This document shows positions 40,346 to 48,179 of a stretch of 64,000 nucleotides of DNA, in pieces. The notes beneath the pieces are model-generated. The model was given only the letters and a program-made list of their open reading frames with translations, was not told the DNA's origin and did not search any database. Position 1 is the first letter of the stretch. Each line of letters begins with the position of its first letter. The translations under genes were made by a program, and so were the position numbers. Source of the DNA: Escherichia coli (GTDB lineage Bacteria; Pseudomonadota; Gammaproteobacteria; Enterobacterales; Enterobacteriaceae); the NCBI RefSeq assembly GCF_045037415.1, contig NZ_CP173438.1; one strand, written 5' to 3'.

Positions 40346-43078
40346 GTGAATTTAACCCTGACCCGAAGACTCTGGATGGGCTTTGCCCTGATGGCGCTGT
40401 TAACCCTGACCAGTACCCTGGTGGGATGGTACAACCTGCGCTTTATCAGCCAGGTGGAAAAAGACAACACTCAGGCATTGATTCCTACCATGAATATGGC
40501 GCGCCAGTTGAGCGAAGCCAGCGCCTGGGAACTTTTCGCCGCGCAGAACCTGACCAGTGCCGATAACGAAAAGATGTGGCAGGCGCAGGGGCGAATGCTC
40601 ACCGCACAAAGTCTGAAGATTAATGCGTTGCTGCAAGCGTTACGGGAACAAGGTTTTGACACCACCGCTATTGAACAACAGGAGCAGGAGATCTCCCGTT
40701 CGTTACGTCAGCAAGGGGAACTGGTGGGGCAGCGTTTGCAACTTCGCCAGCAACAACAGCAACTCAGTCAGCAGATAGTCGCCGCCGCCGATGAAATCGC
40801 ACGCCTGGCGCAAGGTCAGGCGAATAATGCGGCAACCTCCGCCGGAGCGACCCAGGCCGGGATTTACGATTTGATCGAACAACATCAGCGTCAAGCCGCA
40901 GAAAGTGCACTCGATCGGCTGATTGATATCGATCTTGAGTATGTTAACCAGATGAATGAACTGCGCCTTAGCGCCCTGCGGGTGCAGCAAATGGTGATGA
41001 ATCTGGGGCTGGAACAGATCCAGAAAAATGCGCCAACGCTGGAAAAGCAGCTCAATAATGCGGTGAAAATTCTGCAACGTCGGCAAATACGCATTGAAGA
41101 TCCGGGTGTTCGTACTCAGGTAGCAACAACGTTAACTACCGTTAGCCAATATAGCGATTTGCTGGCGCTGTATCAGCAGGACAGTGAAATCAGCAATCAC
41201 CTGCAAACTCTCGCCCAAAATAACATCGCCCAATTCGCGCAGTTTAGTAGCGAAGTCAGTCAGCTGGTCGACACCATTGAGCTGCGTAATCAGCACGGGC
41301 TGGCTCATCTGGAAAAAGCCAGTGCACGCGGGCAATACAGCCTGTTATTGCTGGGATTAGTTTCTCTTTGCGCACTGATTCTGATCCTCTGGCGCGTGGT
41401 TTATCGCTCAGTCACGCGCCCTCTTGCAGAACAAACGCAGGCGCTGCAACGCTTGCTGGATGGTGATATCGACTCCCCTTTCCCGGAAACCGCTGGCGTA
41501 CGGGAACTGGATACCATCGGGCGGCTGATGGATGCGTTTCGCAGCAGTGTTCATGCACTGAATCGCCACCGCGAACAGCTGGCGGCGCAGGTCAAAGCGC
41601 GTACAGCTGAATTGCAGGAACTGGTGATAGAACACCGACAGGCACGGGCGGAAGCAGAAAAAGCCAGCCAGGCAAAATCGGCGTTTCTGGCGGCGATGAG
41701 CCATGAGATCCGCACACCGCTGTACGGTATTCTCGGCACCGCACAGCTGCTGGCAGATAACCCCGCACTTAACGCCCAGCGCGATGATTTGCGGGCGATT
41801 ACCGACTCTGGTGAATCGTTGCTGACCATCCTCAACGATATTCTCGATTATTCGGCTATCGAAGCAGGCGGCAAGAATGTTTCGGTCAGCGATGAACCCT
41901 TTGAACCGCGCCCGCTGCTGGAAAGTACCCTGCAATTAATGAGCGGAAGGGTGAAAGGTCGCCCGATTCGCCTGGCAACAGAAATTGCCGACGATGTACC
42001 GACTGCGTTAATGGGCGATCCGCGGCGTATTCGTCAGGTCATTACCAACCTGTTGAGCAACGCCCTGCGTTTCACCGACGAAGGGCACATTATTCTGCGT
42101 AGTCGCATTGATGGCGAACAATGGCTGGTCGAAGTGGAAGACAGCGGCTGCGGTATTGATCCCGCGAAACTGGCTGAAATCTTCCAGCCATTTGTTCAGG
42201 TTAGCGGCAAACGCGGCGGCACCGGGCTGGGGCTGACTATCAGTAGCCGTCTGGCCCAGGCGATGGGCGGCGAATTGAGCGCCACCAGCACGCCGGAGGT
42301 TGGAAGCTGTTTTTGTTTACGCGTGCCGTTACGTGTTGCCACTGCACCCGTGCCAAAAACAGTCAATCAGGCGGTGCGTCTGGACGGTTTACGTTTGCTG
42401 TTAATTGAAGATAACCCGCTAACCCAGCGGATTACCGTTGAGATGTTGAACAGCAGTGGGGCGCAGGTCGTTGCCGTAGGAAATGCCGCGCAGGCTTTAG
42501 AGACACTGCAAAATAGTGAACCGTTTGCTGCCGCACTGGTGGATTTTGATCTACCGGATATCGACGGCATTACGCTTGCCCGACAACTGGCACAGCAATA
42601 TCCGTCGCTGGTTTTGATTGGCTTTAGCGCCCATGTCATTGACGAAACACTGCGACAGCGTACCAGTTCGCTATTTCGCGGGATTATCCCTAAACCGGTG
42701 CCGCGTGAAGTGCTCGGTCAATTACTGGCGCACTATCTCCAACTGCAAGTCAATAACGATCAACCACTGGATGTATCGCAACTCAATGAAGATGCTCATT
42801 TAATGGGGGCGGAGAAGATCCACGAATGGCTGATATTATTTAAACAACATGCCCTGCCGCTTCTCGATGAAATCGACATTGCCCGCGCCAGTCAGGATAA
42901 CGAGAAAATAAAGCGTGCCGCACATCAGCTAAAAAGCAGTTGCTCGAGTCTGGGAATGCGTAGCGCCAGCCAGCAATGCGCACAACTGGAGCAGCAGCCA
43001 TTATCTGCCCCCCTTCCACACGAAGAAATTACACGCAGTGTTGCCGCTCTGGAAGCATGGTTAATAAGAAAGACCTGA
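40346..43078 (+). CDS. torS: Hybrid sensor kinase TorS; start uncertain
   Basis: ORF track starts at 40139 and overlaps torT; start set at GTG 40346 ([13 protein letters not shown]…); alternative ATG at 40376; HAMP, HisKA/ATPase, receiver and HPt domains. Confidence 0.85.
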
Positions 43079-43160
43079 ACGCGATTTGAATCAATATCAG
43101 CCAGTTAAGAACAACTAGAATAGTGGCATTTGGTATGCAACTTAACGGACTGGCAAAATC

Positions 43161-44234
43161 ATGGCAGAGAAAAAAAGAACCCGCTGGCAACGGCGGCCAG
43201 GCACGACGGGCGGCAAATTACCGTGGAATGACTGGCGCAATGCCACGACCTGGCGTAAAGCGACGCAATTATTACTGTTGGCAATTAATATTTATATTGC
43301 CATCACGTTCTGGTATTGGGTGCGCTATTACGAAACGGCAGGTAGTACGACATTTGTCACCAGACCGGGTGGTATCGAAGGCTGGCTACCGATTGCCGGT
43401 CTGATGAATCTGAAATATAGCCTTGCAACAGGTCAGTTACCGTCCGTCCACGCCGCCGCGATGCTGTTATTGGTCGCTTTTATCGTCATCAGTCTATTAC
43501 TCAAAAAGGCCTTTTGTTCATGGTTATGCCCGGTTGGTACGCTTTCGGAATTAATCGGCGATCTCGGTAACAAACTGTTTGGTCGGCAATTTGTCCTTCC
43601 CCGCTGGCTGGATATTCCTCTGCGCGGCGTGAAGTATTTGCTGTTGAGTTTTTTTCTCTATATCGCGTTATTGATGCCCGCTCAGGCGATTCACTATTTT
43701 ATGTTGTCGCCCTACAGCGTGGTGATGGACGTTAAAATGCTCGATTTCTTTCGTCATATGGGGACCGCGACATTAATCAGCATGATCGTTTTGCTGATTG
43801 CCAGCCTGTTTATTCGCCATGCCTGGTGTCGTTATCTTTGCCCATATGGCGCGCTGATGGGCGTGGTTTCGCTATTATCGCCGTTTAAGATTCGTCGCAA
43901 TGCCGAAAGTTGTATCGATTGTGGCAAATGCGCAAAAAGTTGCCCATCACGGATCCCGGTCGATAAATTAATTCAGGTACGAACAGTGGAATGTACCGGC
44001 TGTATGACTTGCGTAGAGTCATGTCCGGTAGCCTCAACATTGGCCTTTTCACTGCAAAAACCTGCGGCAAATAAAAAAGCCTTTGCGTTGTCTGGCTGGT
44101 TAATGACGCTACTGGTTATGGGGATTATGTTTGCGGCGATTGGTTACGCAATGTATGCGGGAGTATGGCAAAGCCCGGTGCCGGAGGAATTGTACCAACG
44201 CTTAATTCCGCAATCGCCAATGATTGGTCACTAA
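43161..44234 (+). CDS. yccM: NapH/MauN-like polyferredoxin membrane protein YccM
   Basis: 357-aa ORF; two CxxCxxCxxxCP motifs (CIDCGKCAKSCP, CTGCMTCVESCP) and two CxxxCP motifs (CSWLCP, CRYLCP). Confidence 0.85.
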   Translation: MAEKKRTRWQRRPGTTGGKLPWNDWRNATTWRKATQLLLLAINIYIAITFWYWVRYYETAGSTTFVTRPGGIEGWLPIAGLMNLKYSLATGQLPSVHAAAMLLLVAFIVISLLLKKAFCSWLCPVGTLSELIGDLGNKLFGRQFVLPRWLDIPLRGVKYLLLSFFLYIALLMPAQAIHYFMLSPYSVVMDVKMLDFFRHMGTATLISMIVLLIASLFIRHAWCRYLCPYGALMGVVSLLSPFKIRRNAESCIDCGKCAKSCPSRIPVDKLIQVRTVECTGCMTCVESCPVASTLAFSLQKPAANKKAFALSGWLMTLLVMGIMFAAIGYAMYAGVWQSPVPEELYQRLIPQSPMIGH

Positions 44235-44282
44235 ATTAGCAACAAGCGGAACATCACCTCGCACGGGGTGATGTTCACAAAA

Positions 44283-44456
44283 TCACATTATTTTGATTTT
44301 GACATCATAACTTTCAAGCCCGGTCATTTTTTCTCGTGCGGTGAAGCGAATTTCAGAGACTTCTTTCCCTGTATTCTTGTTCAGCTCGGCGATTTTTTGC
44401 GCGATAAAGTCGGCGATTTCCGTTTCGGCTTGTTTTTTTAACTCTTCAATATTCAC
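44283..44456 (-). CDS. gnsA: Small protein GnsA, GTG start
   Basis: Reverse-strand translation VNIEELKKQAETEIADFIAQKIAELNKNTGKEVSEIRFTAREKMTGLESYDVKIKIM, 57 aa; not in ORF track. Confidence 0.75.
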   Translation of the reverse strand: MNIEELKKQAETEIADFIAQKIAELNKNTGKEVSEIRFTAREKMTGLESYDVKIKIM

Positions 44457-44676
44457 TGTTAACCTCTTCTGGTCTTAAAAGACAGCAACACGCCAGTAAG
44501 GTGTTGGTTCCCGGTACCCTGGTCAGGTAAGAAATGTTATAAGCCATCTCCCCGAAAGATTCAATAATCAACAGGTTATCGCTTACTATACATACAGCGT
44601 TGAAGAAAAATAAGGCAGATATAAAAAAGGCTCCACGAGGGAGCCTGATATTATTTTGTGAAATCCAGCGGCGCAT
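44446..44676 (-). CDS. ymcE: Dubious small ORF YmcE
   Basis: 76-aa frame MRRWISQNNIRLPRGAFF…; a strong terminator-like hairpin lies inside its 5' end. Confidence 0.35.
   Translation of the reverse strand: MRRWISQNNIRLPRGAFFISALFFFNAVCIVSDNLLIIESFGEMAYNISYLTRVPGTNTLLACCCLLRPEEVNSEY
44621..44645 (-). terminator. Probable rho-independent terminator of the cspG transcript
   Basis: Stem ggctcc/ggagcc with 5-nt loop followed on minus strand by T-run (plus-strand A-run 44622-44628). Confidence 0.5.
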
Positions 44677-44849
44677 GGTCAGTGCGTATTTGCAGCGCAA
44701 CGTTATCAAAGGTGATCATCGTCGATTTACAAAAAATGCACTTTGCACCCAAAGGGTTTCGCTCCGTCACATCGAATGCCGATGTGCGGTACTGTGAACC
44801 ATGGCAACATGGACAGCGGAAATGGAGATGTTGAGTAATAACGGCAACC

Positions 44850-45062
44850 TTAGAGCGTAACAACGTTCGCTGCCGCGGGACCACGTTGCCCCTGCTCAAT
44901 AGAAAATTCAACTTTCTGATTTTCGTTCAGCGTGCGGAATTCATTGCTCTGGATGGCAGTGAAATGGACGAAAACGTCTTTGCTGCCATCATCAGGAGTG
45001 ATAAAGCCAAAACCTTTATCTGCGTTAAACCATTTTACTAAACCAGTCATTTTATTAGACAT
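44850..45062 (-). CDS. cspG: Cold-shock protein CspG
   Basis: 70-aa [24 protein letters not shown]…. Confidence 0.9.
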
Positions 45063-45347
45063 ATTTTACTTCCTTCATTTTGGGCCTTTCGGCAAACAGG
45101 GCTTTAATACAGAAACTACTTAGTGTTCAGGAGAGAGACTCAAAAGAAGGGGATAATGCCTGATAATGAGAACTGCTTTAGTAAACTACTTTGTATGCTG
45201 TCTGTCTTTCAAACCGACGCAGCTATTAACGCATGATAATTGAGATTAAGCAAATTTTATTTTAGCCGTCCGGCGGTCTTAAATATCGCTGGCTTTATTT
45301 TATTAACCCCGTATAGTGCAGCGCAGTATTTTCAGTAAGGAATTTGT

Positions 45348-45560
45348 TTGTCCCGTAAAATGACAGGAATTGTCAAAACCTTTGATCGCAAAAGCGGCAA
45401 AGGATTCATTATCCCCTCCGACGGTCGTAAAGAAGTCCAGGTCCATATTTCCGCATTCACTCCCCGCGACGCAGAAGTGCTTATACCAGGATTACGCGTG
45501 GAATTTTGCCGCGTAAATGGCCTGCGTGGACCAACAGCGGCAAATGTTTATTTGTCTTGA
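45348..45560 (+). CDS. cspH: CspA-family protein CspH; start uncertain
   Basis: ORF-track start is TTG at 45348 ([12 protein letters not shown]…); alternative ATG at 45360. Confidence 0.8.
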
Positions 45561-46858
45561 TGGAGAGCGCACGCTGGTATGCGTACTTCATTCACGATTT
45601 GCGTAAAACCGGCCAACGAACACATGCCCTGCGCATTTCGCTCTTCACATCCTGCCAGGGTCAGTTTCACCTCTCCGGGCGGCGTATTTAATGACAGCGG
45701 CGTTTTATCACGCATCTGCTGTAAAGTCTGGAAGACCAGCGAAACCTGAATCCACTGGCTGTTATCGCTGAGCCGACGCCAGCGTTCAAACACCAGTTCA
45801 CCCCCTGGCGGCGTGTTATCCGGCTGACCTGGAAGCGTCCAGTTGAGCTCCAGTGCGCCGCCGAGATTTGCCAGATTAGTATCGTGTCCGGCGATAAACA
45901 GCACTGAAGTGGGTAATGTCACACCATACACCTGTTTTTGCGGTGGATGGGGCGCCAACGCTGTCATGATCAAATCCAATAACGGGGTGGCGCGACTGCG
46001 GGCAACCTCTGGTGTGCGTTGCAGCAAATAAAACTGCGCGTTATGTAGACTTAGCAAGGTGTTCCACTGGTGTGAATCGGTGATCCTTCCCCACCCCGGC
46101 TCCGGCATTCCCTGTGCTTGTTGCAGGAGAAATATCTCCGTCAGCATTGATGCGAGGCTTACCGCACCGGTTAATGAGACATTGTCGGCGCTCACCTTGA
46201 GTTCCGATGGTAATGCCTGCGTTAATGAACAGCTTTCGTCCTGTTTCTCACGGTTAAGGCACAAGTTTGATTGCGGGAAATTAAGCACCCGTTCCAGTTC
46301 GCGAAACGCCGTTTGCCGATGCCCGGTAAAGTCAGCAATTGACCCTCCTGCCCTACTGAGGATCGCGTCAGTCACGTTCGCGTTATCCAGTTGGCAAACG
46401 CCAGTTTTTAGAGGATTAAATAACGGATCGGGACTGGACGTATCTGCCTGGGTATGTACGGTTATTGCACAGTCAGGTGCCAGCCCGGCGGCGAAGGCTT
46501 CGCCTGTTTTACGGGTACGTTCGTCGACATCAGCAATAATCGCGACCTGACCTGGCTGCGGGCAGCCCTCTTTTGCCAGCAATCCGTCGGCCACCAGACG
46601 CTGGCGTTGGTAATGTCCGAGATAAGCGATTAGCTCACCACCGCGCGGTGTCAGCCAACCCAGTTTTACCGGCCAGGTTGGCCATGCGTCAGGGGTGACA
46701 TCCTGCATCAGTTGCGTGGCCTTGGTTGGTGCACGCACACCGTGACGACTGACAATCACCACACTTTCCAGCTTCAGCTCCGGCTCACTCTGAGCGAATG
46801 CAGATTTCGGTGTTAACGGAATCAGAAGAGATAAGAATGGGATCAAGATCGCTTTCAT
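45548..46858 (-). CDS. appA: Periplasmic acid phosphatase/phytase AppA
   Basis: ORF 45548..46888; start set at ATG 46856-46858 ([12 protein letters not shown]…); RHGVRAP motif; 3' end overlaps cspH 3' end by 13 bp. Confidence 0.9.
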
Positions 46859-46896
46859 CGATATGTTTCCGCTTTTCATATCCGACATTATTGATT

Positions 46897-46928
46897 GCCT
46901 GATGCGACGCTAATGCGCCTCATCAGGC
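46897..46928. repeat. REP-like palindrome between appX and appA
   Basis: GCCTGATGCGACGCTAATGCGCCTCATCAGGC. Confidence 0.4.
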
Positions 46929-46937
46929 TTACCTTCG

Positions 46938-47030
46938 TTAACTTTTCAGACGCGGGTCCAGCCATACCAACACAAGGGTGGAGAGCGAACACATCAACAA
47001 AATGCCGACGAACCAAAGTAAATACCACAT
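46938..47030 (-). CDS. appX: Cytochrome bd-II small subunit AppX (YccB)
   Basis: Reverse-strand 30-aa hydrophobic ORF MWYLLWFVGILLMCSLSTLVLVWLDPRLKS directly after appB; not in ORF track. Confidence 0.7.
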   Translation of the reverse strand: MWYLLWFVGILLMCSLSTLVLVWLDPRLKS

Positions 47031-47042
47031 TGTTCCTGCTCC

Positions 47043-48179
47043 TTAGTACAGCTCGTTTTCGTTACGGCGGAGAGTTTCTGTCGTCATGCGCCCCCACATT
47101 TTGTAGTAGCTCCAGAGAGTGTAGAGCAACACAATGGGCAAAAATATCAGCACGATTACCAACATAATGCTCAGCGTCAGCTGACTGGAAGTGCTGTCCC
47201 ACAACGTCAGGCTGGAGATCGGACTCACGCTTGACGGCATGACAAAGGGGAACAGCGTGATGCCTGCCGTGAAAATCACGCCAAATTGCATCAATGACGC
47301 CATCAAAAATCCCCAACCCGGGCGACCACGATAAATCGCCATCACCGTCAGCAATGGGCAGAAGAACCCCAGCAGCGGGAAGATCCACAAAACGGGCGAT
47401 TCGACGAAATTATTCATCCAGGCACCAGGTAGCACTGCCACCAGTTTCATTAATGGATTGGAAGGACCGTTAGCATCCTGGGCGAGCAGCACAAAGCCAT
47501 CAATACCAACCCACAGCCAGTAACCCGCCAGCAAAAAGCACAGCATCACCAGTAGTGCGGCGCGTTTGGTCGCCAGCTGTGAACGCAGATGAATCACACC
47601 AACAGTTTTCAGTTGTAACCAGACGCCACCTTGCAAAATCACCATCCCAAGACTGAGCAATCCACACAATAAAGGGAATGGCGTCAGCAGTTGCCAGAAG
47701 CTGCCGAGATATTCCACGCGTAATTGCGGTGTGAAAGCAAACGGCACGCCGAGCAGCAAGTTGCCGAATGCAATACCGAAGACTACCGGCGGCACCAGAC
47801 TGCCGATGACCAGTCCGGCATCCCACATTTTACGCCAGCGTGCATCGGCGATTTTTCCGCGATAATCAAAGGCCAGCGGGCGGAAGAACAGCGAGCACAG
47901 CACCAGAATCATCGCCACATAAAAGCCGGAAAACGCCGCTGCATACACTCTGGGCCAGGCGGCAAATAATGCCCCACCTGCGAGGATCAACCAGACCTGA
48001 TTGCCTTCCCAGTGCGCGCCAACGCTGTTTATCACTATCCGACGTTCATCATCATTACGCGCCACCAGCGGCAGCAGACAGCCGATCCCCATGTCAAATC
48101 CGTCGGAGATCATAAAGACCACCAGGATCACGCCAATCAGCAGCCACCAGATGAAACGCAATGTTTCATAATCAAACAT
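47043..48179 (-). CDS. appB: Cytochrome bd-II oxidase subunit II AppB
   Basis: 378-aa [20 protein letters not shown]…. Confidence 0.95.

Follow-up and report, generated by a model that had tools for sequence, protein, structure and literature searches.

In the 64-kb stretch of Escherichia coli DNA analyzed here (64,000 nucleotides in full, referred to as the window), the convergent genes cspH and appA meet tail to tail at the very site that in K-12, O157 and strain A25 holds the group 4 (O-antigen) capsule operon gfcABCDE-etp-etk, also known as ymcDCBA-yccZ-etp-etk. The flanking genes are the same in all of these genomes; the window, however, is unoccupied and carries none of the seven operon genes (0/7). 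Our preferred reading, to which we assign a probability of about 0.85, is that this junction is the unoccupied, old and likely ancestral allele, that the capsule cassette was inserted in the lineage of K-12- and O157-type strains, and that the ends of the two transcripts are probably set by Rho.

Structure of the cspH-appA junction

The junction and its left neighbor are made up of the following features:

44796..45218, minus strand: cspG with its cspA-type thermoregulator leader (Rfam RF01766), left neighbor of the junction, divergent from cspH
45348..45560, plus strand: cspH, CspA-family cold-shock-like protein of 70 aa, with a TTG start and a TGA stop at 45558-45560 (listed open reading frame)
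45548..46858, minus strand: appA, periplasmic acid phosphatase/phytase of 436 aa, with a TAA stop (complement at 45548-45550; open reading frame with the start called by PGAP)
45548..45560, no strand assigned: 13-nt tail-to-tail overlap TTATTTGTCTTGA, dual-coding, delimited by the ends of both open reading frames
45562..45568, no strand assigned: empty site of 7 nt, standing in place of the gfcABCDE-etp-etk cassette of gfc-positive strains

Within the overlap, cspH reads Tyr-Leu-Ser-stop on the plus strand and appA reads Gln-Asp-Lys-stop on the minus strand. The initial annotation had described this tail-to-tail arrangement with its 13-bp overlap, and both the open reading frame coordinates and the PGAP annotation of strain IPCEC48 bear it out. 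The latter, an E. coli human isolate from Cambodia with the assembly accession GCF_026001205.1, is near-identical to the window (2 mismatches across 64 kb), and PGAP calls in it the same two overlapping CDSs, with the same cspH coordinates. Because the same junction is found in 1,668-1,678 complete genomes, as detailed below, the abutment is a biological allele and not the result of chance or of an artefact. Convergent bacterial gene pairs with overlapping 3' ends likewise share a few codons tail to tail and keep both frames by dual coding; compared to these, the cspH/appA pair shows nothing distinctive, and a regulatory role for it is hypothetical.

Both genes are intact in the window strain. 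CspH is 100% identical to its K-12 counterpart and matches the NCBIfam equivalog NF012008 over its full length (176.1 bits, for a cutoff of 141). In the case of AppA, which is 97.8% identical to the K-12 protein, the match to equivalog NF007552 reaches 841.8 bits (cutoff 585), with the last four residues falling outside the profile. The translation contains both catalytic motifs of a phytase/histidine acid phosphatase, namely SRHGVRAPT (RHGXRXP) and AGHDTN (HD), as does K-12 AppA, a 432-aa periplasmic pH 2.5 acid phosphatase/phytase of the histidine acid phosphatase family. The two enzymes differ, however, at their COOH-terminus: the window protein ends in PACALHQDK and the K-12 protein in PACSL, and the four residues by which the former is longer are encoded opposite the 3' end of cspH.

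On the other side of cspH, CspG is also 100% identical to that of K-12, and an Rfam scan of positions 43000-48000 placed RF01766 over the cspG leader and coding region with 160 bits (gathering score, 78), which is an expected finding for a cold-shock gene. Other than this thermoregulator, the scan of these 5 kb returned just sub-threshold noise. One such sub-threshold match, to the REP-derived naRNA4 family, falls at 46839-46929, where a spacer separates cbdX/appX from the appA start, and probably reflects a REP-like palindrome only.

The occupied allele in K-12 and A25

In MG1655, the gene order is appA, etk, etp, gfcE, gfcD, gfcC, gfcB, gfcA, IS1D, cspH. Homology between the window and both K-12 and strain A25 extends on the cspH side up to position 45561 and starts again on the appA side from 45569, leaving 7 bp in the window versus 9,055 bp in K-12, where IS1D is included. 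Strain A25 carries the cluster without an IS1, and the insert measures 8,284 bp (8.28 kb). The K-12 map that the initial annotation gave, with about 9 kb of etk-etp-gfcEDCBA plus an IS1 between cspH and appA, was therefore accurate, as the 9,055 bp measured in MG1655 indicate, and the alignment to K-12, where cspH and appA are not adjacent, gave no reason to revise this order. The absence of a capsule cluster and of an IS1 between the two genes in the window was upheld as well: a tblastn search of the 64-kb window with K-12 Etk, Etp and GfcA-E returned no match at E<=1e-5, no IS1 is present in the 64 kb, and the flanks join directly where a group 4 capsule locus would place its seven genes between appA and cspH. 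The broader statement that the strain lacks the locus entirely holds in its first part, as no gfc, etp or etk gene lies in the window; for the rest of the genome, it is supported just indirectly, by the matching genome counts reported below.

The two alleles also differ at their edges. In the occupied allele, the last two codons of cspH and its stop are written differently, even though the same residues are encoded. Directly past the K-12 appA stop, a hairpin of 11 bp precedes a T6 run on the etk strand, with a REP-like element coming next, and both the hairpin with its T6 and the REP element are absent downstream of appA in the window. In this K-12 hairpin (L001, 3417-3530) the T-run lies on the etk strand and the A-run on the appA side, and the structure looks like the terminator of the etk operon, possibly bidirectional, rather than one specific to appA.

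A search of the ends of the 8.28-kb insert of A25 for terminal direct or inverted repeats or for a target duplication found none, except for a trivial shared CAT, and the occupied allele does not resemble a mobile element or integrase-type island, having neither terminal repeats nor an integrase. Tested for unusual base composition, the cassette showed none, its G+C content of ~51% being that of the chromosome. Divergence of the cassette within E. coli (97-99% identity) is also like that of core genes.

Frequency of the empty site among E. coli genomes

We surveyed 5,426 complete RefSeq E. coli genomes using as queries the 2.3-kb cspG-appA stretch, a 121-bp sequence spanning the junction, and the gfc-etk DNA. 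The 2.3-kb query was matched in all but a few genomes (5,422/5,426), contiguously in 1,678 (31%) and with split flanks in 3,744. The 121-bp junction was found in 1,668 genomes, with 96.7-100% identity, and the genes it joins were always annotated as appA and cspH. DNA of the gfc-etk cluster was present in 3,745 of the 5,426 genomes, 3,697 of which had >=80% of it. The contiguous-junction and gfc-positive classes look complementary, and because the number of genomes with split flanks (3,744) nearly equals that of gfc-positive genomes (3,745), empty-site genomes would be without a cluster elsewhere, which is a counting argument and not a direct scan. The remaining 48 gfc-positive genomes carry partial clusters, and these point to secondary deletions within the occupied allele; one example is NZ_CP091756.1 (LC-1302-2020), in which the match is limited to the initial 61 bp of the appA-etk spacer of K-12. 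A separate observation concerns NZ_CP123325.1 (AREA_502), which is 100% identical to the window over the 2.3-kb cspG-appA stretch except for an IS1 inserted within it; an IS1 also struck this neighborhood in K-12, in the form of IS1D upstream of gfcA.

Among genomes with the contiguous junction are the B2 strains NU14, 83972 and NRG 857C, but also some that are ~2% diverged from the window, which is the distance of K-12 itself from the window. Assignment to phylogroups beyond B2 rests here on a published survey (PMC8281228) and on this ~2% divergence. The survey found group 4 capsule (G4C) genes in only 15 of 195 B2 genomes (8%), mostly LEE-positive EPEC, reported phylogroup G and some B2 strains as G4C-positive, and set this capsule type against the group 2 capsule, which belongs to phylogroups B2, D and F (PMC8281228). 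Within B2, gfc/etk genes have also been reported for an STc28-related group that carries a T3SS (PMC8715443). The empty site is, in short, a common presence/absence polymorphism that has already been published, and not a strain-specific oddity. Both papers, however, give presence/absence only, and the junction, the 13-bp overlap and the longer AppA are not described in them (PMC8281228, PMC8715443). What our analysis adds to the literature is minor, and consists of the exact breakpoints, the AppA form that is longer by four residues, and the evidence that the abutment is ancestral.

Near-identity to IPCEC48, together with a junction that matches those of NU14, 83972 and NRG 857C, assigns the window to a lineage of ExPEC type. 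Judging by gene content, B2 strains with this junction would be unable to produce a group 4 (O-antigen) capsule through the Gfc system, and the absence of the operon fits the division between group 2 and group 4 capsules that is described in the literature. The empty site could also serve in practice, as positions 45500-45620 constitute a precise, PCR-sized marker for G4C-negative strains.

Origin of the two alleles

To look beyond E. coli, we searched for AppA in one genome per GTDB species, which yielded usable loci from four Escherichia genomes; neither E. albertii nor E. fergusonii was among them. The four come from E. whittamii, Escherichia sp. E1V33, and two records that are named E. coli but represent separate GTDB species. 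Over the 9-12 kb that span the junction, all four loci are collinear with the window, with 88.8-91.5% identity (compared to ~98% within E. coli), and in all four appA abuts cspH with the same 13-nt overlap. The AppA tail reads SLHQDK in three of these loci and TLYQDK in one, in each case followed by the stop, and the Gln and Asp codons of the tail show third-position changes across the outgroups (CAA/CAG and GAC/GAT). Because four divergent Escherichia lineages have the same junction, the empty site is far older than phylogroup B2. Apart from these loci, AppA residues 25-129 are encoded by a 317-bp contig of Nocardioides antri (L007), with 98% identity to the window and 100% to K-12; this actinobacterial assembly is almost certainly contaminated with E. 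coli DNA.

The cassette, for its part, is found in other genera. The nearest relatives of GfcD outside E. coli are 80-81% identical. Enterobacter hormaechei carries the same seven-gene cassette between ligB and yicG, and one Citrobacter freundii genome carries it between dcuS/dcuR and a glycosyltransferase/dsbD region. In both, gene set and order are as in the E. coli cluster; the chromosomal positions, however, are different, and homology to the E. coli flanks is not detectable. Homology of the cassette DNA between E. coli and these two genera amounts to ~72% at the nucleotide level and is confined to the coding part, as none was seen outside the coding sequence for the gfc promoter and flanks.

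We favor a scenario in which the cassette entered an overlap that was ancestral, because the same junction is present in the outgroups and because the cassette sits at other loci in other genera, and on these comparisons of sequence we consider an insertion, rather than an ancient deletion, to be the probable direction of the event. The ancestral state would have consisted of the convergent core genes cspH and appA overlapping by 13 bases, with AppA ending in Leu-His-Gln-Asp-Lys. On the branch that gave rise to K-12, O157 and their like, the 8.28-kb cassette would then have entered no more than a few bases from AppA codon 433, and the insert would have supplied a new appA stop (a TAA right after Leu432), the strong hairpin with its T6 terminator, and the REP element, shortening AppA by four residues. 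The IS1D upstream of gfcA would have been gained later in K-12, separately from the insertion of the cassette. If this polarity is right, the allele of K-12, whose AppA is the reference for this phytase, is probably the derived one, and the reference enzyme is four residues shorter; this would be the one modestly useful addition of our work.

The alternative that deserves most consideration is that the site was occupied in the ancestor and lost the cluster in a single ancient deletion, after which the deletion allele was either retained or carried by homologous recombination into E. coli of phylogroups B2, D and F and into the cryptic clades. The lack of insertion scars at the ends of the insert would be in agreement with such a scenario, and so would its native-like composition and core-like divergence among E. 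coli, and the reported presence of the cluster in phylogroup G and in some B2 strains (PMC8281228). Nonetheless, we regard it as unlikely. A deletion would require that two intact, overlapping open reading frame ends arose by chance, and the four-residue AppA tail has persisted while its codons changed at third positions; the junction, moreover, is the same in collinear DNA 89-91.5% identical in four other species, and the cassettes of Enterobacter and Citrobacter reside at different loci. It could also be argued that the abutment was made by a recent deletion specific to this strain, or by a collapse in its assembly, an explanation for which the contrast with K-12 is the only argument. Such an event is refuted, and its residual probability is minimal, given that the junction is common to 1,668-1,678 independent complete genomes and to four other species.

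Transcript ends at the overlap

That no terminator is visible between the two genes, as the initial annotation remarked, proved true for canonical intrinsic terminators: a consensus scan of both strands near 45500-45700, allowing loops of 3-8 nt, found none. Folding of the sequence just past the cspH stop also gave nothing significant (z = -1.4). Two features on the plus strand are nevertheless worth listing as candidates:

45505..45558, plus strand: weak candidate element resembling a terminator, within the 3' end of cspH, from folding
45581..45680, plus strand: C-rich, G-poor stretch of cspH read-through RNA, antisense to appA, from base composition

The former consists of an 8-bp stem, UUUGCCGC/GCGGCAAA, in which positions 45505-45512 pair with 45537-45544, and of a structured loop of 24 nt, with UGUUUAUUUGUCUU after it. 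Folded alone, this element has a free energy of -20.6 kcal/mol (z = -2.5), but it is absent from the MFE structure of its 141-nt context, and the same element is present in K-12 cspH. We see this hairpin, with the U-rich tract that runs up to the cspH stop, as a weak and marginal candidate terminator predicted by folding, and as a lead more than a finding. Within the latter, the C/G ratio is 1.6-2.0 in 60-nt windows, and base composition suggests that it could be a possible Rho loading region on untranslated antisense RNA.

Given that the junction lacks both a spacer between the genes and a canonical intrinsic terminator, we propose that Rho probably defines the transcript ends. It would act on the antisense RNA beyond either stop codon, where there is no translation, and the weak hairpin and U-tract at the cspH 3' end may perhaps help to end transcripts. 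The complete chain, in which the overlap is ancestral, the cassette was inserted exactly there, the K-12 AppA end, stop and terminator are all derived from the insert, and the antisense 3' ends are Rho-dependent in empty-site strains (roughly 30% of E. coli), is offered as a tentative proposal that we hold to be somewhat less probable than its negation.

It could be envisioned, alternatively, that the overlap works as a functional antisense module, in which the two messages, through their complementary 3' ends, would control one another, whether by transcriptional interference or by cleavage with RNase III. The missing spacer and canonical terminator would suit a module of this kind, as would conservation of the overlap across ~10% DNA divergence. 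Dual coding, however, explains that conservation, gfc-positive strains keep both genes even though they have no overlap, and E. coli cspH and appA are expressed under different conditions, appA in stationary or anaerobic phase and cspH following a nutrient upshift. We therefore find such a module improbable, more so than an ancient deletion of the cluster, and keep Rho-dependent ends as the preferred reading.

Additional observations in the window

Two annotation details away from the junction emerged from the IPCEC48 record, whose sequence is identical to the window at both places. The TMAO sensor kinase gene torS (40346-43089, plus strand) is called by PGAP as a frameshifted pseudogene; the long open reading frame stops at 43078, 11 nt short of the annotated end, which places the frameshift near the 3' end of the gene. 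Between agp and cbpA, at 32392-32493 on the minus strand, PGAP annotates the remnant of a short partial pseudogene, flagged as "missing N-terminus".
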